Below are positions 5,040 to 54,438 of a DNA stretch of 64,000 nucleotides, one piece after another. The stretch lies in contig PCXA01000007.1 of the NCBI GenBank assembly GCA_002796325.1, positions 145,780-209,779 on the forward strand, written 5' to 3'. Source of the stretch: Deltaproteobacteria bacterium CG11_big_fil_rev_8_21_14_0_20_47_16 (GTDB taxonomy: Bacteria; UBA10199; GCA-002796325; 1-14-0-20-47-16). The number at the start of each line of letters is the position of its first letter. Positions within the stretch are counted from its first letter, which is position 1. A model generated the notes under the pieces. The model searched no databases. It worked only from the letters and a program-made list of their open reading frames with translations, and was not told the DNA's origin. The translations under genes and the position numbers were made by a program.

Positions 5040-5855
5040 ATGAAAAAAATTATCGTCAAACTCACACTCATCACTCTTGTTGTAACACTTGCAGCTTGTT
5101 CTTCAACACCTGTGCGACGTTCTGCCAAGGAAACATGGACTGACACCATGACGGCTTCCAAAGTGCGCTACAAACTGATGAAGGATAAAGAGGTACACAA
5201 AGGTCGCATGCATGTTGAAGTTTATCGAGGTGAGGTAACTCTGACGGGACGCGCTGCAACTGAAGCTGAGAAGGCCCGGGCGGAAACACTGGCCAAATCT
5301 GTCAAACATGTGACCGGTGTTGAAAATTATGTCCATATCGTGGGTACTGGCAAGCCAGATTCCGCCGTTGCAGTTGCTGCGCCAATTACTCCAGTTGTAA
5401 CAGATACCATTACGGAAAAGGTGCTCGTTAAAGAAGAGGTTGTGGTCTCCGATAATGCTATTGCAGCCGTTCCAACGGTTCGAGAATCCACTGGTAAGCC
5501 TGCACGTTTGATCCCAGGTCGTAAGGCAAGTGAGCCCAAAAAGGTGGCCAGTCGTACCAAGGCACCTGCTAAAATCGGCGAAGATGACAAACCTGCGGCT
5601 ATTCGCAAAGTGCCAGCTGAACCGGCTCAGGTGGTGGGGCGGTCATCAACCGGTCTGCCTTGGGATGGTGAGGTTTACGAGGATGATACCTCCAGTGTGA
5701 CACCAGTAGCGGCCTCAAAGGCCCCTGCTGAGGCAATTGCCACCCGGACGCCAGCCAAGTCTAAAGTCGATAATAAGGCCCCAGTTAGTCAGCCGACGGA
5801 TGATTTGGCCGCGGAAGCCGCTCAGGAGCTCGAAAAACTCCGTTCCAAACGCTAA
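5040..5855 (+). CDS. BON-domain (OsmY-like) lipoprotein with Ala/Pro/Lys-rich tail
   Basis: MKKIIVKLTLITLVVTLAACSS lipobox signal; ORF track start 4680 is an antisense extension into rsmD. Confidence 0.65.
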   Translation: MKKIIVKLTLITLVVTLAACSSTPVRRSAKETWTDTMTASKVRYKLMKDKEVHKGRMHVEVYRGEVTLTGRAATEAEKARAETLAKSVKHVTGVENYVHIVGTGKPDSAVAVAAPITPVVTDTITEKVLVKEEVVVSDNAIAAVPTVRESTGKPARLIPGRKASEPKKVASRTKAPAKIGEDDKPAAIRKVPAEPAQVVGRSSTGLPWDGEVYEDDTSSVTPVAASKAPAEAIATRTPAKSKVDNKAPVSQPTDDLAAEAAQELEKLRSKR

Positions 5856-6883: not shown

Positions 6884-7369
6884 ATGAAACAAATATACCC
6901 CCTAGGACTAATCATTGTTGCGGTTGTTGCAACAGCATGTACGCGGTATTCCTATCCATCATCGTCGGCGATGCCGGCACTATCTGCTCAAGCCAATTTG
7001 TCATCATCGACATCGCCAAATTCTCTTAAGTCTTCATCTTCTGCCAAAATTGTAGATGTTGCGTGTGTGGGCAGCGACTATCAATTACGAGTGTCGTATC
7101 AGCAAGATTTTGACAAAGTGATTCAGCAGGACTTGCAGTATCAGGTTTTTCCGGAATCAAGTGAAGAGATTAGGCAGGTAACCCATCCTACGGGAACTGT
7201 TCCTATTGAGACTGTTGCTCCTAAAGGCGAGGTTACATTTGTAATCCCCGCAACCAAATTCCAAGAATCGCAGTCTGATATTGTGTTGCGATTGCGCATC
7301 AAGAGTCAGCAGATTATCGAAGCCACGTCCCCATACGACATTATTCACGTGAGCCACGGCTGCAACTAA
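6884..7369 (+). CDS. Small Ser-rich lipoprotein, hypothetical
   Basis: MKQIYPLGLIIVAVVATAC lipobox; AAAGGAG RBS upstream of ATG 6884. Confidence 0.5.
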   Translation: MKQIYPLGLIIVAVVATACTRYSYPSSSAMPALSAQANLSSSTSPNSLKSSSSAKIVDVACVGSDYQLRVSYQQDFDKVIQQDLQYQVFPESSEEIRQVTHPTGTVPIETVAPKGEVTFVIPATKFQESQSDIVLRLRIKSQQIIEATSPYDIIHVSHGCN

Positions 7370-22276: not shown

Positions 22277-22831
22277 ATGGCACATCAACCAAAAGGAGGA
22301 CGCCTACCATTTGGTGTTATCGCACCAGATTTTACGCTCCGTGCAACCGATGGTAAGGAATACAGTTTGCACCGTCAAAAGGGACAATACGGAACGGTTG
22401 TAATATTCTCATGCAATCACTGTCCCTATGTGCAGGCCTACGATGAACGAATTAACGCATTAGCCGGAACATACATGCCAAAGGGAATTCAATTTTTTGT
22501 CATTAATTCGAATGATGAACATGTTTATGCAGATGACAGTTTTGAAATGATGCAGAAGAAAGTGATTCAAAATGCATTAGTATACCCATACCTACACGAT
22601 GCGACTCAACAAGTGGCTGTTGAATATGGTGCAGGTTGCACACCTGAAGTATTTGCGTTTGATGATCATTTACGATTAATTTATACGGGTCGAATTGATG
22701 ACAATATGGATCAACCGGAAAAGTCCACCCAGCGCTATTTGCGAGATACGTGTGAAGCTATGTTGGCTCGGCGCCATCCCGAAGTTCGTGAAGTGCATCC
22801 AATTGGTTGTAGCATCAAATGGAAAAGGTAA
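22277..22831 (+). CDS. Thioredoxin-fold protein (redoxin / AhpC-TSA-like)
   Basis: CNHCP active-site-like motif; AGGAG RBS. Confidence 0.7.
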   Translation: MAHQPKGGRLPFGVIAPDFTLRATDGKEYSLHRQKGQYGTVVIFSCNHCPYVQAYDERINALAGTYMPKGIQFFVINSNDEHVYADDSFEMMQKKVIQNALVYPYLHDATQQVAVEYGAGCTPEVFAFDDHLRLIYTGRIDDNMDQPEKSTQRYLRDTCEAMLARRHPEVREVHPIGCSIKWKR

Positions 22832-23706
22832 CGCCAAAGTGCCCCATATTTTATGAATGTGGCGGCTGCCAATTGCAGGATATGGCATATGCTGATCAAC
22901 TGCAATTAAAGTATGTGGCGGTATGTGAGGCCTTAACGCAAATTGCCCAGCTTCGTTCGCCAAATGTTTTACCAACAGTTGCTGCATCTCATCCTTGGCA
23001 TTATCGAACACGCATAACGTTGCATTGTGATCGCAATGGGCGCATTGGTTTTTATCGTAGGGGAACTCATGATGCGATTGAATTTGATGAGTGTCCTATT
23101 GCTGCACCAGGAGTTAATGCAAAACTAGCTGCAGAAAAGAAGAAGATCACAGGACGTCCTGGGCACTACGAAGTGCGTATTGATGATGGTGAAGGATTTA
23201 CGCAAATCAATCCTGAACAGAATAAGGAGCTACAGCAGTTGTTATGTGATGGACTATCGGGACGGTCTGCAACGGTAGTTGTGGAGCTGTTTTGCGGGAA
23301 TGGTAATTTTAGCTTTCCCATCGCTCCATTGGTTGGCAAACTTTACGGGTGTGATTCTCACGAAGGCTCAATTACAGCAGCAATCGCTCAAGCTAAATCC
23401 CAAAAAGTAAAGAATGTGCAATTTGCCGCAGCCGAGTCGCACAAGTTTATGCGGACTCTACAAAATCAGGGTGTGAAAGCAGATGGTTTGGTTTTAGATC
23501 CACCACGTCGCGGAGCCCCTGAAGTGATTCAGTCAATTTTAGAAATGCTGCCACAGTGGATATGTTATATTTCATGCAATCCCGAAACATTTGCCTCTGA
23601 CTTAAAGGCACTTTGCCAGGGTGGTTACAGGTTAGAATCCTGCCAACCCGTAGATATGTTTCCACAGACGAATCATGTTGAAACGATTAGTTGGTTGTCG
23701 CGGTAA
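22819..23706 (+). CDS. Class I SAM-dependent RNA methyltransferase (RlmD/TrmA-like) with N-terminal Cys cluster
   Basis: CPIFYECGGCQ cluster; C-terminal YISCNPETF motif. Confidence 0.75.
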   Translation: MEKVTPKCPIFYECGGCQLQDMAYADQLQLKYVAVCEALTQIAQLRSPNVLPTVAASHPWHYRTRITLHCDRNGRIGFYRRGTHDAIEFDECPIAAPGVNAKLAAEKKKITGRPGHYEVRIDDGEGFTQINPEQNKELQQLLCDGLSGRSATVVVELFCGNGNFSFPIAPLVGKLYGCDSHEGSITAAIAQAKSQKVKNVQFAAAESHKFMRTLQNQGVKADGLVLDPPRRGAPEVIQSILEMLPQWICYISCNPETFASDLKALCQGGYRLESCQPVDMFPQTNHVETISWLSR

Positions 23707-38706: not shown

Positions 38707-41283
38707 TTACTGAAAATCATACATCTCTATGCCGCGCTCGGGATTGGCGGCAAAGACAATGCTACCAGAAGAATCAATGTCGGTGAATTGACATTCGGAG
38801 CAGTTCTCTCCAAACCCGCCATCCAGATCCAAAAGGGCAGCAGGATGTAATCCGTTCGTGCCGTTTAATTGGACAAGGTAATGACCACCAGCTGACACTA
38901 CTTTTCCTGTGGGGGCATCAACTGCTTCCTTAAAGATATTGAAACCGATATCCAAAATACGTGTGGTGGTAGCGCTTTCAATCCAACGCAGGAAACCATT
39001 GGGGTGTAAGTTGATAAACGTGTTCTGAAGTCGAACAGCAGATAGGCCAGATGCAGTATCGGCTTGTGGAAGTGGTGTAATTTCACCAGTTGGATTACAT
39101 GAATTGATGTCGGGTGCCATTTGTGGGCTAACATGCATATTCATTAACCACACATTGTACGTAGGGTTATAATGTTGGAAGAATCCCCTTAGGACAAAGT
39201 CACCTGCTTGAGGATCTGGAACAACACTTAGGCGACCCAAAAATTGAGCTTGATCATTGAGCTTTCCATAGCTGGTATTCCATGAATAATTATTGTTGGG
39301 ATCAACGATATCGCTGCATCCTTGAATAGTTGCTACGCGATTGAACATGGAAGCTGCAGAAATGTCCATTTGTGCAACGATAACGCGATACCGATTGGCA
39401 ATACCGTCCCATCCATGAACTAAAATTGCAAGATGGTAGATATTGGGTAATGCAGGATTGGTAAATACTTTGATATCATCAACACGTTCAAACTCACCGT
39501 TAACTCCCATTCCGCTAAATGCTCCCAAGGTATATAGATCAAATATACCAGTTTTATTGGAAGCCTTACTTAGAGAAAAGGCCATGACGGCAGGACCCTT
39601 GATGGCAGTGCTGATATTGTCACCAGTAATGGTATCCTTATAGACCCTCACACGTGGTCCTAGTGTGCCATGGCGCACATCAAAGATGAGACCACCCGAG
39701 TGAAATAGTCTGGCATTATTAGCGTCTGCCACGGAGTCATTATCTTGAGCATTGACGATCGGAAATGATGCATAATCATCAGATACTGTACTCTGAAATA
39801 CAGTCGCGTTCTTGGCCGTGTCGTTATAGCTGACAGATCTATTGCCAATGTTCAGTACTTTTGTGATGGCGGTGTATGGTACAGTCGTTGGTTCCCCTAG
39901 ACCATTTTGATAGTCTTTGTGCTCCCAAATAGCCGTTGTGGGACCAGTTGGTAGAAACTGTGGTACTGTGACAATCGTCTTAACGCCTACGTTGATTTCG
40001 TCAGTAGTAGATCGCATTGTTGCACTACGAACATAATCAAAAGGTTGTTTGGTGGGCCACACAGACCATTTTTGTTGAGTTGGTCCGGCAAAAAAGTTGT
40101 CAACGCGCGCAATGCTGTCCAAGCCACGAATGAATGCTGTAGAAACAAAAGTGTCCATGCGCCCCATTCGGAAATCACCAAGTTTTGCAGGAATGCCAGA
40201 CCATAGGTTTGCGATTGGAGTGCCAATGGGTGTGTTATAAGTTGCAATACCACTTTCCAAAACGGTGGGTGCTGAGAGTTGATAGCTTGTGCCAAATAAG
40301 AATATGGCTGTGGAGGTAATGTTAATATCTGACGCAAAGAATCGATCAAACTTTCCAAGTTGCATCACAAATGGCTCAACAGGTGTCTGACGAGCAATAT
40401 CGATCAAATATGCAGTTGATTGAAATGACAGCCATTCGTTTTGTAATGCCAGCTTGAACTGATCTGCACTTACAAATTCTTCTGGTAATCGTGATGACGT
40501 TAAGAATGCAGCTAATGTACTATCTGCTACAACTTTAGTGGGATGAAAGAGGCGTTTATCCTTGGCATTTGCAGGATCCACAGGATGATCCTTGGCTTGA
40601 TACGCAACAAACATGCAGCCAAACCCCAATTGAAGATCAGAAAGCTTTGCAATGAGTACGTTGTCATCAGCCACCATGTAGACCATTTCAGTAGGCTGCT
40701 CTCCTGCAGATAAAATTTGGTTTTTGGCAGTGGCAACGGATCGGATGCGCGTGATGGCATCTACGGACTTTTGGGATACAACTGAAAATGAATTCCCATT
40801 GTAATTCAGGCCAATAATATCGAGACCGCCGTCTGTTCCAACAAGCACTGTTGGATTGCTCGCATTTCCAGTAATAATAATGCTGCGGATCATGTTGTGG
40901 GTAGTCAAGGAAAGCGAATCACCAATATGTAATTTCCGTCCCTCATTCCATACCGGAATATAGCCAGAGAGTTGCTTGATGATGGCATATGCTGTTGTGG
41001 TTCCACCCCAGCTTTTACGATAGGCCCGCTGCATGGCAGTAGTGGCATATGTGGTTAAACTGACGGGGTTACCTGTTGTAATGTCTGAAAAGGCCCATTG
41101 TCCTGGGAGAGTGCCACATTCAGAGACCTTGGTGACGTTGCCAACGGCAGGGGCCTCAATAGTGGTAGGAGTAATGGTCGTTGTCGGGTTTTCAGGCGTT
41201 ATGTCGCCACTGCCGCCACATGCAGTCAAAAGTGTGGCAGTTAACAGTGTAAAAATAAAGGGTTTTTTAATAAGATCCCCCAT
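38707..41283 (-). CDS. Large (858 aa) lipoprotein, no recognisable domain
   Basis: Lipobox LLTACGGS; GGAGG RBS; Thr/Asn/Gly-rich, beta-rich composition. Confidence 0.6.
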   Translation of the reverse strand: MGDLIKKPFIFTLLTATLLTACGGSGDITPENPTTTITPTTIEAPAVGNVTKVSECGTLPGQWAFSDITTGNPVSLTTYATTAMQRAYRKSWGGTTTAYAIIKQLSGYIPVWNEGRKLHIGDSLSLTTHNMIRSIIITGNASNPTVLVGTDGGLDIIGLNYNGNSFSVVSQKSVDAITRIRSVATAKNQILSAGEQPTEMVYMVADDNVLIAKLSDLQLGFGCMFVAYQAKDHPVDPANAKDKRLFHPTKVVADSTLAAFLTSSRLPEEFVSADQFKLALQNEWLSFQSTAYLIDIARQTPVEPFVMQLGKFDRFFASDINITSTAIFLFGTSYQLSAPTVLESGIATYNTPIGTPIANLWSGIPAKLGDFRMGRMDTFVSTAFIRGLDSIARVDNFFAGPTQQKWSVWPTKQPFDYVRSATMRSTTDEINVGVKTIVTVPQFLPTGPTTAIWEHKDYQNGLGEPTTVPYTAITKVLNIGNRSVSYNDTAKNATVFQSTVSDDYASFPIVNAQDNDSVADANNARLFHSGGLIFDVRHGTLGPRVRVYKDTITGDNISTAIKGPAVMAFSLSKASNKTGIFDLYTLGAFSGMGVNGEFERVDDIKVFTNPALPNIYHLAILVHGWDGIANRYRVIVAQMDISAASMFNRVATIQGCSDIVDPNNNYSWNTSYGKLNDQAQFLGRLSVVPDPQAGDFVLRGFFQHYNPTYNVWLMNMHVSPQMAPDINSCNPTGEITPLPQADTASGLSAVRLQNTFINLHPNGFLRWIESATTTRILDIGFNIFKEAVDAPTGKVVSAGGHYLVQLNGTNGLHPAALLDLDGGFGENCSECQFTDIDSSGSIVFAANPERGIEMYDFQ

Positions 41284-41378
41284 CGTAGGGCCTCCATACC
41301 TATTATCGGTAGAAATTGCAAAAAGTTGCCTAATATGAACCTTTTTATTTCCGTCATCTCCTTGAGGGAGAGGGCTGC

Positions 41379-47145: not shown

Positions 47146-47297
47146 TGTTTTTTCTAAGCAACTTTTTCCGTAACCAACCGATAACCTACATGAGTGAGGA
47201 TGAATACAAAAAAACACCAAAAGTAAATGACTTGGTGGGGCACGGGGGAAGGAGATACGCCCCATCCCATAATCCCCCACTCCTTCTCCCAAACAAA

Positions 47298-51579: not shown

Positions 51580-51612
51580 CCCCGGTTATCTTTTAGATGA
51601 CCGGGGTTTTTT
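51580..51612. terminator. Intrinsic terminator after FKBP gene
   Basis: CCCCGGT / ACCGGGG stem, 13-nt loop, TTTTTT. Confidence 0.7.
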
Positions 51613-52231
51613 GATTATCCGGATTAAAAAACTGCAAGGAAAAGCCCGCAAATGAAGCTGTAGCCCCCCCTGTTTCGGCAAACAGTGCACAGATTCCACC
51701 AACAAAGGCAGTTGCATATCCCAAGGCTTTAAATGTTGGCGATGTCCACCAAGCCCTCGTGATAGATACAGGAGACTTCTCCCGAAAGAGAGAAAGTTGA
51801 ACAGGTACTGTCGCTGGCCTTTTGCTGCGCACCACAGCAGGTGTCGGTGGTGGAGGTGGAGGTGGCTGACAGTCATCGGGGTGGTCGTCGAGATACTGTC
51901 GCGCAACACGATGTCTGAATTCCGCTTTTTCCTGTGGTGTGCTGAAGCGATGAGAGTGCGCCTGCCTAAAATTTGAGTCTGCAGCCCAACTCATCGGACG
52001 TCTGGATGTTGATTCCCAACGCCAATTTGCTGCCTCATAGGAACTATTTCTGGCGGGTTGACGTATCATATTGGTATCAAGATTCGAAAAATCCACTAGA
52101 TCATCGTACCGCGAATTCCAATCGATTCTAGATCCACCATTCGACCGTTCACCACACAACGCATTAATGCAGCTTGGAAGGTTTTGAAAGCATCCTTGAG
52201 GGGGAGTTGCATTGTTTGGCGGTATACCCAT
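51593..52231 (-). CDS. Hypothetical Pro-rich protein with C-terminal hydrophobic anchor
   Basis: Good RBS (AAAGAGAGGA); CxxxxxxxCxxxC near N-terminus, PPPPPPPTP tract, C-terminal hydrophobic segment. Confidence 0.5.
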   Translation of the reverse strand: MGIPPNNATPPQGCFQNLPSCINALCGERSNGGSRIDWNSRYDDLVDFSNLDTNMIRQPARNSSYEAANWRWESTSRRPMSWAADSNFRQAHSHRFSTPQEKAEFRHRVARQYLDDHPDDCQPPPPPPPTPAVVRSKRPATVPVQLSLFREKSPVSITRAWWTSPTFKALGYATAFVGGICALFAETGGATASFAGFSLQFFNPDNQKTPVI

Positions 52232-52356
52232 AATAAGAGTCCTCTCTTTACTCTGTTAGGGTATCGGCTGTCATGTGAAAAGGTTGCTATGGTTACTAAA
52301 ATATAGATATCAACCATCTAATTTTTATATGTTTTCTATGATTGTGCTTCTGTGGG

Positions 52357-52947
52357 TTATTTTCGCCCAGTTGCGACAATATAGACTTCGGTTGATCCCT
52401 TACGGGTAGCCTGGGTATGAACGATCTGGGCTTTTTGGAAGTGGGGGCGAATGGCCTCGAGTAATTTGGGAGTGTCTTCACCAAACAGCAACTTAATGAC
52501 CAAATTTCCGCCGGGTCGGAGGAGCTCTTGCGCCCACTGCCAGGCCAGTTCACCCAAATCGTAGGATCGACACTGGTCCTGAAACTTAACACCGCTGGTG
52601 TTGGGTGCCATGTCGGATAGGACGCAGTCATAAGTGGGGCTGTGCTCACGAGCGGCAAAATAGGTGGCGTTGGCCTCTAAATCTGCCTGAATCACACGAA
52701 TATTGCCCGCAGATTGAATTTTGACCGGTAAACGGTCAATTCCTACGACAATTCCGCTTGAACCGACCTGTTTTGCCACAAATTCCAGCCAACTGCCGGG
52801 TGCACAGCCCAAGTCCAGCACGCTGTCACCTGGCCCAAATAATCTAAATTTTCGATATAATTCTTCGAGTTTGTAGACCGCTCGGCTCGCATGACCCTCA
52901 CGCTTGGCCTTGTCATAATAGTGATCTTTCCGTTTATACTGTGCCAT
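52357..52947 (-). CDS. rlmE: 23S rRNA (uridine2552-2'-O)-methyltransferase RlmE/FtsJ
   Basis: SRAVYKLEEL and DLGCAPGSW motifs. Confidence 0.85.
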   Translation of the reverse strand: MAQYKRKDHYYDKAKREGHASRAVYKLEELYRKFRLFGPGDSVLDLGCAPGSWLEFVAKQVGSSGIVVGIDRLPVKIQSAGNIRVIQADLEANATYFAAREHSPTYDCVLSDMAPNTSGVKFQDQCRSYDLGELAWQWAQELLRPGGNLVIKLLFGEDTPKLLEAIRPHFQKAQIVHTQATRKGSTEVYIVATGRK

Positions 52948-53107
52948 AGAATTATTTGCGCCTTCTCACACAACTTTTACCCAAATCCAGCCGATAATAC
53001 AATTGAGGGTAGTGTTTGTTCCCCACTTTGGGGCCAAAACTCCCCACTTCGTTAGGGCGCCTAACACAGGTCCTAATGAGGGGATAGAAAAAAGATAAGG
53101 AAAATCA

Positions 53108-53185
53108 ATGGTTTTAGGCATTCCGATTTCCGTGATTTTTGTTTGGGTACTTGGCCTGGCTTTTGCTTATCTAGCAGGTAGGTAA
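53108..53185 (+). CDS. Possible small ORF encoding a 25-aa hydrophobic peptide
   Basis: ATG preceded by AAGGA at about 9 nt; single predicted TM helix; below ORF-track size cutoff. Confidence 0.3.
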   Translation: MVLGIPISVIFVWVLGLAFAYLAGR

Positions 53186-53224
53186 GTTGGCCCATGGTGG
53201 GCCAGCCAATATAAAGAGGATGTT

Positions 53225-53533
53225 ATGGCAATGATCGTTCCAAAAATTCCAGCAAGTTCTGCAGAGGCCATTCGCGTGGCCCAGCAGATTATGACTGGCG
53301 AACCATCAGCGGACGCTACATCGATGACAGAATGTGGTGTAAGCGAATTTGCCGCTCGTGGTTTGGTGCGATCTTCAGGTCAGGGGCGTGTTGCAGGTTC
53401 TATGTGGGCACCCAAGGCCAAAGTGGGACCAGACTACGATCGACTGGCTGCATTTATTGATTCATTACCAGCTGAGTTGCAGGCCGATGTGATGGTAGCG
53501 ATTGCGCAAGATGCGTTTAAGGGGGCCATATGA
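53225..53533 (+). CDS. Hypothetical protein (102 aa)
   Basis: AAAGAGGA RBS; ATGA overlap with downstream gene; no recognisable motif. Confidence 0.5.
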   Translation: MAMIVPKIPASSAEAIRVAQQIMTGEPSADATSMTECGVSEFAARGLVRSSGQGRVAGSMWAPKAKVGPDYDRLAAFIDSLPAELQADVMVAIAQDAFKGAI

Positions 53534-53838
53534 AGCAGACATGGACACGTGAGTCATTAACCAAATTGACAGAAGCCCTGATTGTGCGTGGGAGCAAGGC
53601 ACTGACCAATCGCCATTTTCGTACCAAGTTGGATCGTGATCAGAATTTGTTCATGAATCAGATTGTACGCGAAGCCAATGGGAATATTGCGTACAAGTCG
53701 GTGGACTTTGATTTGAATGGTAAAACGGACGAAGAAATCTGGAGCCGTATTGAGCAAACGCCGTATTTGGACGTCATTGAAGAGAATGCGGCCGTGGCAA
53801 TCATCAAGATGGCAGAGAAACTTAAATTAGTGAAATAA
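53530..53838 (+). CDS. Hypothetical protein (102 aa)
   Basis: Translationally coupled to the previous gene; no recognisable motif. Confidence 0.5.
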   Translation: MKQTWTRESLTKLTEALIVRGSKALTNRHFRTKLDRDQNLFMNQIVREANGNIAYKSVDFDLNGKTDEEIWSRIEQTPYLDVIEENAAVAIIKMAEKLKLVK

Positions 53839-53986
53839 TTGTGTGACAGACGCAACTTTTTCAAAAATTTGCCGATAATATAATTAGAAGGTCAAAAACT
53901 TAATAACCCGGGGGAGTGAGAAAGGTTTTTTATGAAGCTCTTCCGGTTTTTTAATGTTTGGATGTGGTGTATTCGCAGCTAGAGCT

Positions 53987-54023
53987 AAAAAGGCCAACGC
54001 CCTAATAGGGGCTTGGCCTTTTT
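53987..54023. terminator. Stem-loop / terminator between the hypothetical genes and tRNA-Phe
   Basis: AAAAAGGCCAA ... TTGGCCTTTTT stem with inner CCCT/AGGG helix; U-run on both strands. Confidence 0.5.
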
Positions 54024-54044
54024 GTTTGTGGCAAATGCGCTGCT

Positions 54045-54120
54045 TGGTGGACAGGGAGGGAATCGAACCCCCGACACGAGGATTTTCAATCCTCTGCTCT
54101 ACCGACTGAGCTACCTGTCC
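54045..54120 (-). tRNA. tRNA-Phe (anticodon GAA)
   Basis: Hand-folded cloverleaf: acceptor GGACAGG/CCTGTCC, D-arm GCTCAGTCGGTAGAGC, anticodon loop TTGAAAA, T-arm GGGGGTTCGATTCCCTC, encoded CCA; 76 nt. Confidence 0.9.
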
Positions 54121-54438
54121 CGATAGGGAGCGGCGTCATTAGTATAGGACGCAATTTGAGTCAAGATTTGGCTGAATAGGTTTTGGAAATAAAGAAGATA
54201 CATAGCAAGTTGCAAGAATCGTCATGAAGGAAGTAGGTGTGACTTGCTGATATTGCTCATGGATTTGGCAAAAATTGGGGGAGTGGTGGCGTAATTGACG
54301 CCTGCAGTTTGGTGTGATATAAGGCGCACCAAGTTTTTCGGCAGAAATCGCCACAACGTCTTGAATTTGAAGACTTATGTCGGTCTATTTTTTGACCAGG
54401 CTTTAGGAGATTTTTACCCAATTTTAAGGAGGTTTTGA

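Follow-up and report, generated by a model that had tools for sequence, protein, structure and literature searches.

Regulatory hierarchies that pass from RpoN to FliA, with a FliA-dependent flgM, have been described in a review (PMC3930126), and Bdellovibrio bacteriovorus has the FliA-attributed motif TTAAG-N16-CCGATA at 92 of 140 attack-phase promoters, where it serves the transcription of many genes unrelated to the flagellum as well as of three small RNAs (sRNAs) (PMC3627812). The locus described here comes from the uncultured Deltaproteobacteria bacterium CG11_big_fil_rev_8_21_14_0_20_47_16 and occupies positions 52,948 to 54,044 of a 64,000-nucleotide stretch of contig PCXA01000007.1 (the window). 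It lies between rlmE and a tRNA-Phe gene and contains two overlapping genes for 102-residue proteins, here called A and B, together with predicted alternative-sigma promoters, a candidate sRNA and intrinsic terminators. The architecture of promoters, A-B unit, sRNA and terminators is assigned from the sequence with high confidence. The reading favoured for the whole, which is judged rather probable, is that of a conserved expression unit under the control of sigma-54 and of a sigma-28-type sigma factor, with, more tentatively, a regulatory role for A and B.

The closest described counterparts of A and B are the flgM-type junction genes of the Vibrio, Campylobacter, Helicobacter and Pseudomonas cascades. 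These are likewise small, with partly disordered products, and likewise combine an earlier-tier promoter (sigma-54 with an enhancer in the present case) and a promoter that has the -10 octamer of sigma-28. They differ from A and B in sequence and profile, the latter being either two genes or a fused 205-residue protein with a five-helix domain. They also have TAAA at -35, where GCAAC is found here, and no flagellar genes were seen in the 64-kb window. The attack-phase FliA regulon of B. bacteriovorus shares its -10 hexamer and 16-nucleotide spacing with the promoter class described below, and it too is dense, with uncharacterised proteins of cell-surface type and independently transcribed sRNAs (PMC3627812). 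However, its -35 element is TTAAG rather than GCAAC, the present lineage is a separate, uncultured one, and the likeness shown is one of promoter motif and not of homologous sRNAs or proteins.

Gene A (53225..53533, plus strand) follows a Shine-Dalgarno (SD) sequence, AGAGGA, at 53214-53219 and encodes the N-terminal half of the A/B unit. Gene B (53530..53838, plus strand), the start of which overlaps the stop of A by ATGA, encodes a conserved five-helix domain. Database homologues of B number 50 (100 to 116 residues, 50 to 100% identity), and those that are named are all 'hypothetical protein' entries from metagenome-assembled genomes (MAGs) of uncultured 'Deltaproteobacteria/Pseudomonadota bacterium'. 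An A-like open reading frame (ORF) stands ahead of B in 19 of the 20 loci first examined. With this conservation of both, A and B are real genes.

Two stretches of B are invariant or nearly so, FRxxLxRDxNLxxNQxxREANGNIAYRSVD and IEENAAVAxxKMAEKL, and the AlphaFold model of the protein has five helices (mean pLDDT 85, pTM 0.51). The product of A is largely disordered and fast-evolving, with two C-terminal helices. Its identity between loci is only 8 to 33%, and between the window and a relative at 85% identity in B the divergence of A far exceeds that of B. It is rich in Ala, Lys and Gly and retains short motifs. Many members begin with M-x-S/T-G-G, '...A-x-x-F-G/A...' is found in the middle of the protein, and the helix at the C-terminus reads 'R...A..L...P...L'. 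In loci L001 (3588-4004) and L005 (3651-4001), which represent the nearest subclade to the window, the N-terminal region of A is rich in Lys, Ala, Pro and Val (e.g. PKAVKVKQPAVAGFAPAVKKPAPAAAKAA) and is reminiscent of histone-H1-like bacterial proteins, a feature that is not family-wide. The median isoelectric point (pI) across the family is 9.7 for A (basic) and 5.2 for B (acidic). The polarity is swapped in the window pair (A 4.9, B 9.0), as though complementary rather than absolute charge were maintained.

No family was found for A, B and their family members in Pfam (19 A and 50 B sequences), NCBIfam, PADLOC or PHROGs. The matches that fell below threshold were to DUF905 (E 0.11) and, in 3 of the 19 A sequences, to FliG_M (E ~0.1), and the weak PHROGs matches were to families of unknown function (E 0.0016 and 0.0055). 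Together with negative results from the PDB, this agrees with the preliminary description, made from the letters of the window, in which neither product was recognised as a member of a described family. Matches to designed TIM-barrel structures in the PDB do not represent homology, as they are the repeated word 'IAYRS-D' summed across four repeats. A and B are also not paralogues of each other, BLASTP giving no alignment between them.

An exhaustive HMMER search of 1.84 billion cluster representatives with the B profile matched only 37 proteins. About a third of these are 202 to 259 residues long, with B as their C-terminal half. The N-terminal halves of these fusions bear the motifs of A and align collinearly with concatenated A and B pairs, the two being in sister lineages one fused chain of about 205 residues. 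In the model of one such natural fusion (P0060) the B domain has a pLDDT above 90, which is higher than for B alone; the A part has low confidence over residues 1-60 and helices at 66-83 and 88-101. The natural single-chain fusions therefore indicate that A and B act together, as had been supposed when the two were first described as a pair. Judged by these alignments they are two halves of one protein and one functional unit, and they would assemble into one helical unit; their opposite charges were counted as support for the pairing.

The more distant matches to the B profile (E 1e-6 to 5e-4) are proteins of 344 to 787 residues with Ser/Thr/Ala/Pro-rich N-termini and a shared central region that has no Pfam match; at their very C-terminal end is an 'A-type helix + B-like domain'. 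One of these is encoded in a MAG that also has a split A/B pair and is therefore a paralogue within the lineage. Large paralogues of about 720 to 750 residues, with no Pfam domain, are encoded at L056 (7140-9341) and L057 (5283-7590). Their genomic surroundings contain no functionally telling neighbours.

The leader upstream of A is, by its conserved motifs, an enhancer-type sigma-54 promoter region. The -24/-12 core of the promoter P2 is TGGCCTGGCTTTTGC (53152..53166, plus strand), with a predicted start at about 53177-53180. When the spacers between rlmE and A are aligned, the invariant columns read TGGC-N7-TTGC. This is present exactly in 33 of 37 non-redundant loci, and the other four have TGGCAyG-N4-CTGC in the same place. 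The core stands 18 to 58 nucleotides ahead of the start of A across the loci, with the consensus TGGCA(A/G)G-N4-TTGCAT followed by a strong SD of the AAGGAGG type and the A start codon. Within the window TGGC-N7-TTGC occurs 7 times against 5.0 expected, which is not above chance, and the evidence for P2 is therefore its conservation across loci.

Between the core and a candidate activator site farther upstream is a box resembling the binding site of integration host factor (IHF), AATCAA-N4-TTx at 53102..53114, in which AAAATCAA is invariant among the aligned relatives. In most loci an AATCAA-N4-TT(A/G) box is found 25 to 45 nucleotides upstream of the -24 element. It is termed IHF-like by comparison with the IHF consensus, WATCAANNNNTTR, and it is a predicted site at the level of the motif. 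CCCC/GGGG inverted repeats (TCCCCACTTTGGGG ... CTCCCCA ... TTAGGGCGCCTAA) span 53019..53064, and their CCC...GGG columns are invariant in close relatives. Across the loci, CCCC(A)n...TTGGGG inverted repeats lie 70 to 150 nucleotides upstream, and where distant loci have no distal promoter P1, described below, repeats of the type CCCCAAA-N-TTTGGGG stand at the same relative position. Their presence in loci without that promoter argues for an activator site at the DNA level, and the repeats are a candidate site for the enhancer-binding protein acting on P2. Described enhancer-dependent sigma-54 promoters consist of an upstream activator site, an IHF bend and TGGCAC-N5-TTGC. The same spacing of -24 GG and -12 GC is found here, along with an upstream site and an IHF-like box that agree at the motif level, and there is nothing atypical in the version at this locus. 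A small hairpin in the 5' untranslated region (UTR) of A (UGGCCCA-UGG-UGGGCCA, 53188..53204, plus strand) is specific to this genome, being conserved neither in L058 nor in other loci.

A possible gene for a 25-residue single-helix peptide had been noted in this leader. The ORF in question (MVLGIPISVIFVWVLGLAFAYLAGR, 53108..53185, plus strand) overlies the sigma-54 core, and it is present only in the window and in two relatives, L058 (85% identity in B) and L001 (67%). Its counterpart in L060 has another start and charged residues, and a segment of about 20 nucleotides is missing from L059, from L005 and from every distant locus. Between the window and L058 there are approximately 8 non-synonymous and 2 synonymous changes. 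On this comparison the ORF is read not as a gene but as a T-rich spacer and promoter core translated by accident. Less probably, it is a subclade-specific upstream ORF on the long P1 leader, in favour of which is an SD-like AAGGA ahead of it.

A second class of promoter is represented on both sides of the A-B unit. The distal promoter P1 (aCAAC-N16-CCGATAA, 52970..52997, plus strand) has its -10 octamer, GCCGATAA, at 52990-52997 and a predicted start at about 53005. P3 (GCAAC-N16-CCGATAA, 53851..53878, plus strand) begins 13 nucleotides after the stop of B, with GCCGATAA at 53871-53878. The window has two copies of the 15-mer GCCGATAATAyAATT, at 52990 and 53871. With its partner element the class motif is (G/A)CAAC(T)TTT-N11/12-(G/A)CCGATA(A/C), that is, AAC-N16-CCGATA. 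Across the loci the -10 element reads (G/A)CCGATA(A/C) or GACGATAA, the -35 element is (G/A)CAAC(T/A)TTT in all copies, and the spacing from AAC to CCGATA is N16 (15 to 17). The count of GCCGATAA alone in a single window is not significant, and its evidence is conservation across loci; CAAC-N15-17-CCGATA occurs 6 times in the window against 0.31 expected, a number that none of 100 shuffles reached. About half of the loci have P1, some 180 to 230 nucleotides ahead of A, and in 36 of 40 non-redundant loci P3 follows B by no more than 250 nucleotides. From its position P1 would read through the enhancer region into A and B, giving the operon dual control.

The remaining copies of the class in the window extend it beyond this locus. 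One (41304-41329, minus strand) is about 20 nucleotides ahead of a gene for an 858-residue lipoprotein without a known family (38707-41283), and another (52262-52287, minus strand) is about 30 nucleotides ahead of a 212-residue Pro-rich ORF (51593-52231) that adjoins rlmE. In other loci the large paralogues with a B-domain, including those of L056 and L057, have a promoter of this class exactly 34 nucleotides ahead of their start codons. Its presence on these paralogues and on two family-less proteins of envelope type suggests that the regulon is broad, as it is for FliA in Bdellovibrio. Two further copies, at 47158-47183 (plus strand) and 23255-23281 (minus strand), are antisense and within coding regions, one each in the 5' part of an LPG-synthase-like gene and in the ORF at 22819-23706; these could be chance occurrences or the sources of antisense RNAs. 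Every promoter of the class is followed by a purine-rich start region of the form T(A/G)GAG(A/G)G (52998-53012 and 53879-53892 in the window), which may contribute to promoter recognition or serve as a leader tag at the 5' end of transcripts throughout the regulon.

The octamer GCCGATAA is the consensus -10 element of sigma-28 (FliA) promoters (PMC12784957), and the spacing equals the N16 of the Bdellovibrio motif. Because the extended -10 octamer is present in full, a FliA-like (group 3) sigma factor is favoured for the class on motif grounds. Recognition by the housekeeping sigma factor was considered and rejected. The promoter of the tRNA-Phe gene (54136-54164, minus strand) has a TTGACT -35 element and TAcTAAT/TAATGA resembling a -10, which indicates that ordinary sigma-70-type promoters are probably in use in this organism. 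With so canonical a -35 element at tRNA-Phe, the GCAAC class is therefore best placed in an alternative-sigma regulon. A sigma-32 heat-shock assignment, considered for the 858-residue gene under a class promoter, was likewise discarded, this gene encoding a family-less lipoprotein and not ClpB.

P3 is a candidate promoter for a separate, terminated RNA of about 67 nucleotides, which from its conservation would represent a previously undescribed family. The candidate sRNA (53886..53952, plus strand) has a purine-rich 5' end, an A-rich linker, a hairpin with the arms CCGGGGGAG (53908-53916) and CUCUUCCGG (53938-53946), and a U6 tail (53947-53952). Its 5' end was placed 8 nucleotides past the octamer, as in Pseudomonas aeruginosa fliC, in which GCCGATAA occupies positions -15 to -8 (PMC12784957). 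The same order follows P3 elsewhere: an A-rich linker, a hairpin with (C)GGGGGAGC as its 5' arm in nearly all cases, and a run of U. Among 28 aligned non-redundant homologues the GGGGGAG of the 5' arm is at least 90% conserved, and the 3' arm varies mainly from C to U, by which G-U pairs are kept. A fixed 5' arm beside a drifting 3' arm suggests selection on the sequence of the G-rich arm, beyond the need of a plain terminator. A covariance model built for the sRNA matches the 64-kb window at a single place (E 2.8e-6). Rfam contains no sRNA family that matches the window, the best non-tRNA match scoring 19 bits against a gathering threshold of 44, nor one that matches seven other loci.

The G-rich character of the RNA extends beyond the hairpin. 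In the 220 nucleotides after P3 there is a mean of 2.9 GGGAG/GGAGG boxes, against 0.46 on the complement and 0.77 in a coding control. The RNA of the window has only two or three such boxes, of which one is sequestered in the stem of the terminator. In L021 (~990-1090), and also in L013, L028 and L040, the region after P3 is expanded into 4 to 11 tandem units of the GGGGAGUC type; these arrays resemble protein-sponge RNAs and have no Rfam match. A GGGUUAGGG box is found directly ahead of the start codons of the large paralogues (L056 ~7185-7200, L057 ~5330-5343). It recurs as GAGGGUUAGGG(C/U)C between B and tRNA-Phe, downstream of the sRNA hairpin, in L008, L009, L010, L013, L018 and L021, and is absent from the window copy of the region after B. 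The decoy sRNAs of the Csr/Rsm systems (CsrB, RsmY/Z) are comparable in that the sRNA here is likewise short and terminated, with SD-like purine motifs, and in that some lineages have arrays of 7 to 11 GGGAG(UC) units. They differ in their motif, which is GGA in loops rather than GGGAG, and in that the sRNA here is without a match in Rfam.

A 16-codon ORF (MKLFRFFNVWMWCIRS, 53932..53982, plus strand), previously described as an aromatic-rich mini-ORF with its own ribosome binding site, begins inside the loop of the sRNA hairpin and is judged not to be a gene. Its translation is that of the 3' arm and U-tail of the terminator, CUCUUCCGGUUUUUU giving LFRFF. It has no conserved counterpart in the 28 aligned loci, and most of the homologous RNAs either have no ATG or have it in another frame. 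The compound hairpin of the preliminary description is present as structure, the segment 53839-54044 folding at -67.7 kcal/mol (z = -4.0), but it consists of two separate intrinsic terminators and not of one compound element. GC-rich stems with U-runs, as expected of rho-independent terminators, are found at 53908-53952 and, on both strands, at 53987-54023. The latter, A5-GGCCAACGCCC-UAAUA-GGGGCUUGGCC-U5, folds on the minus strand at -29.3 kcal/mol (z -3.55) as a stem followed by UUUUU, and on the plus strand it is supported by folding and by a terminator scan. An equivalent second hairpin is found in L001 and L005. Since the element sits between convergent transcription units, it is read as a bidirectional terminator, predicted to act both on read-through from the plus strand and on the convergent tRNA-Phe transcript.

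The surroundings of the unit are constant. The left border is the divergent neighbour rlmE, encoding an FtsJ-type 23S rRNA methyltransferase (52357..52947, minus strand; Pfam FtsJ, E 4.7e-44), separated from A by 277 bp, and rlmE is the neighbour in related loci as well. The right border is the convergent tRNA-Phe (GAA) gene (54045..54120, minus strand), identified by ARAGORN and scored at 73 bits by the Rfam tRNA model. Its position is kept in relatives, and the Rfam scan found tRNA-Phe at the locus in seven further cases. Beyond it the window continues with carD, ispD and ispF, all on the plus strand. The order rlmE(-), A-like ORF and B (+), tRNA-Phe(-), carD ispD ispF cysS (+) was found on every long contig examined, and 17 species-representative genomes and 29 metagenome contigs agree with it. 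In all, about 40 related loci share this order, with B identity falling to about 50%. All of the ORFs listed in the preliminary description, the 277-bp spacer, the ATGA overlap, the hairpins and the tRNA-Phe gene are thus physically present.

What was proposed for them as a group fares less well. A second copy of the 3' 20-mer of tRNA-Phe is absent from the window, even when 3 mismatches are allowed; there is no shift in GC content (0.43 to 0.50 throughout), and the neighbourhood has no integrase or other mobile gene. The gene content of the window and its flanks is otherwise housekeeping only. A tRNA-associated genomic island was therefore rejected, there being neither integrase nor tRNA 3' repeat nor atypical composition. 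With synteny in about 40 loci, no att repeat, flat GC content and no mobile gene, the region is, as far as comparative evidence goes, vertically inherited core genome of an uncultured deltaproteobacteria-like clade and not the mobile accessory module that a tRNA flank had called to mind. The locus is widely conserved and its small ORFs show no evidence of translation, which essentially disposes of the accessory and peptide readings.

Under the favoured reading, a sigma-54 activator would first license the expression of A and B, and the sigma-28-type sigma factor would then reinforce it, or feed back on it, through P1. From a translationally coupled bicistron A and B would form one helical unit, which would couple the stages of a sigma cascade and would not be an enzyme, a toxin or a mobile-element gene. 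The P3-driven sRNA would be a co-regulated post-transcriptional arm, either as an SD-like G-rich decoy or as a base-pairing RNA, and the bidirectional terminator would insulate the unit from the convergent tRNA-Phe gene. Several observations weigh against this. There is no sigma-factor, flagellar or enhancer-binding-protein gene in the 64-kb window. The promoters and the RNA are recognised from motifs and conservation, and the case for A and B as regulators is made wholly from promoter logic. The PDB, searched by sequence and by fold, contains no relative of A or B and offers no known regulator fold for them. Neither protein is a FlgM (PF04316), hhalign against the Salmonella FlgM sequence giving a probability below 1% and Pfam giving no match. 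The -35 element of the class is also not that of sigma-28 promoters: neither TAAA, nor TCTAAAG as in P. aeruginosa fliC, nor TTAAG as in Bdellovibrio is matched, only the central AA being common to them. It resembles instead the 'AAC' box of extracytoplasmic function (ECF) sigma factors.

This last resemblance makes it conceivable, at rather low probability, that the class is read by an ECF (group 4) sigma factor, which would place the unit in an envelope-stress-like regulon with additional sigma-54 control. An AAC core at -35 with 16 nucleotides to 'CG' is typical of ECF promoters, the regulon members seen are of envelope type and the canonical TAAA is absent. However, ECF promoters usually have a -10 element of the CGT type, and here CGATAA lies within an extended octamer, (G/A)CCGATA(A/C). 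This octamer is the same as in the sigma-28 consensus, and it also equals, N16 included, the FliA motif of Bdellovibrio. The regulon also looks large, with 6 sites per 64 kb, as for Bdellovibrio FliA. The sRNA, for its part, could be without function, P3 and its terminator being a relic or an insulator, for example the duplicated promoter and 5' UTR of a paralogue gene or a device that keeps polymerase off the tRNA gene. This is considered unlikely. It would account for the purine-rich 5' segment, which follows every promoter of the class and is found in the 5' UTRs of the paralogues too, and for a length and linker that vary across loci, from 36 to 73 nucleotides. It would also account for the weak covariation of the stem, in which only 3 of 7 core pairs show a double change; this and the shared 5' segment count as well against a dedicated sRNA. 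Yet the RNA is kept in 36 of 40 loci where B identities fall to about 50%, the GGGGGAG of its 5' arm is nearly invariant as its 3' arm drifts, which a mere terminator does not need, and several lineages expand the region into GGGGAGUC arrays.

As to what A and B do, dual control by sigma-54 and a sigma-28-type factor is the pattern of flagellar junction genes such as flgM, and by this analogy they may, tentatively, be a stage-coupling regulator or partner protein of the sigma cascade. About equally likely, and no less tentative, is that they are a structural, secreted or chaperone-substrate part of an organelle of motility or of the cell surface, controlled first by sigma-54 and later by a sigma-28-type factor, with the basic, disordered A as export substrate or adaptor, the acidic, helical B as partner domain, and the large paralogues as cargo. 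In Salmonella, flgM is not alone in having dual class 2/class 3 promoters, which are also found on genes for chaperones and for hook-associated proteins. Such a role fits the small size and the median charges of the two proteins and the conserved M-x-S/T-G-G N-terminus of A. Paralogues of 680 to 790 residues that have low-complexity, Ser/Thr/Ala/Pro-rich N-termini and a C-terminal module, under the same promoter class, suit it at least as well as they suit a regulator, and elsewhere in the window the class serves genes for a lipoprotein and a Pro-rich protein. It is improbable, although it can be formulated from the RNA motifs, that A, B and the adjacent RNA make up a ribonucleoprotein control system, an analogue of CsrA/CsrB with an unrelated fold. 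B, with its basic N-terminal half and invariant Arg, Asn and Gln, would then be the predicted binder of the G-rich GGGAG and GGGUUAGGG boxes located in 5' leaders throughout the sigma-28-type regulon, among them the long leader of A and B themselves and the mRNAs of the large paralogues, and the neighbouring sRNA, with its GGGGAGUC arrays in some lineages, would be the decoy. The toxin-antitoxin-like accessory module, with extra small peptide genes, that had been suggested beside tRNA-Phe is very improbable, and so is a defence-type one. Like type II toxin-antitoxin pairs, A and B are two small, adjacent genes with a stop/start overlap and a variable upstream partner. They are also family-less and adjoin a tRNA gene, and the upstream partner is labile and disordered-looking with a conserved downstream partner. 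They differ from such pairs in a strict core synteny that has the same neighbours in about 40 loci and is not patchy or mobile, with neither att repeat nor GC shift, and in collinear natural fusions. Their conserved promoter is an enhancer-dependent sigma-54 promoter and not an autoregulated operator, no toxin or antitoxin fold or family was found in Pfam, NCBIfam, PADLOC, PHROGs or the PDB (sequence and fold), and the mini-ORFs are not conserved.

The locus is real, conserved and well structured, and it is made of known kinds of part: promoters for alternative sigma factors, an orphan family of proteins and a new candidate family of sRNAs. It also illustrates how promoters and terminators can mimic genes for mini-proteins, a T-rich -24/-12 region appearing as a transmembrane-like peptide and a terminator arm with its U-tail as an aromatic-rich one. 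If the favoured reading is true, this short intergenic stretch would be a ready-made regulatory map for an uncultured lineage, with a clade-wide sigma-54 enhancer promoter and a variant sigma-28-class motif, GCAAC-N16-CCGATAA, that could be used for genome-wide prediction of the regulon. An undescribed sRNA family and an orphan family of split or fused helical proteins would be tied to that regulon. Current understanding is not overturned by this; its value would lie in a well-defined entry point for experiments or for the mining of metatranscriptomes.

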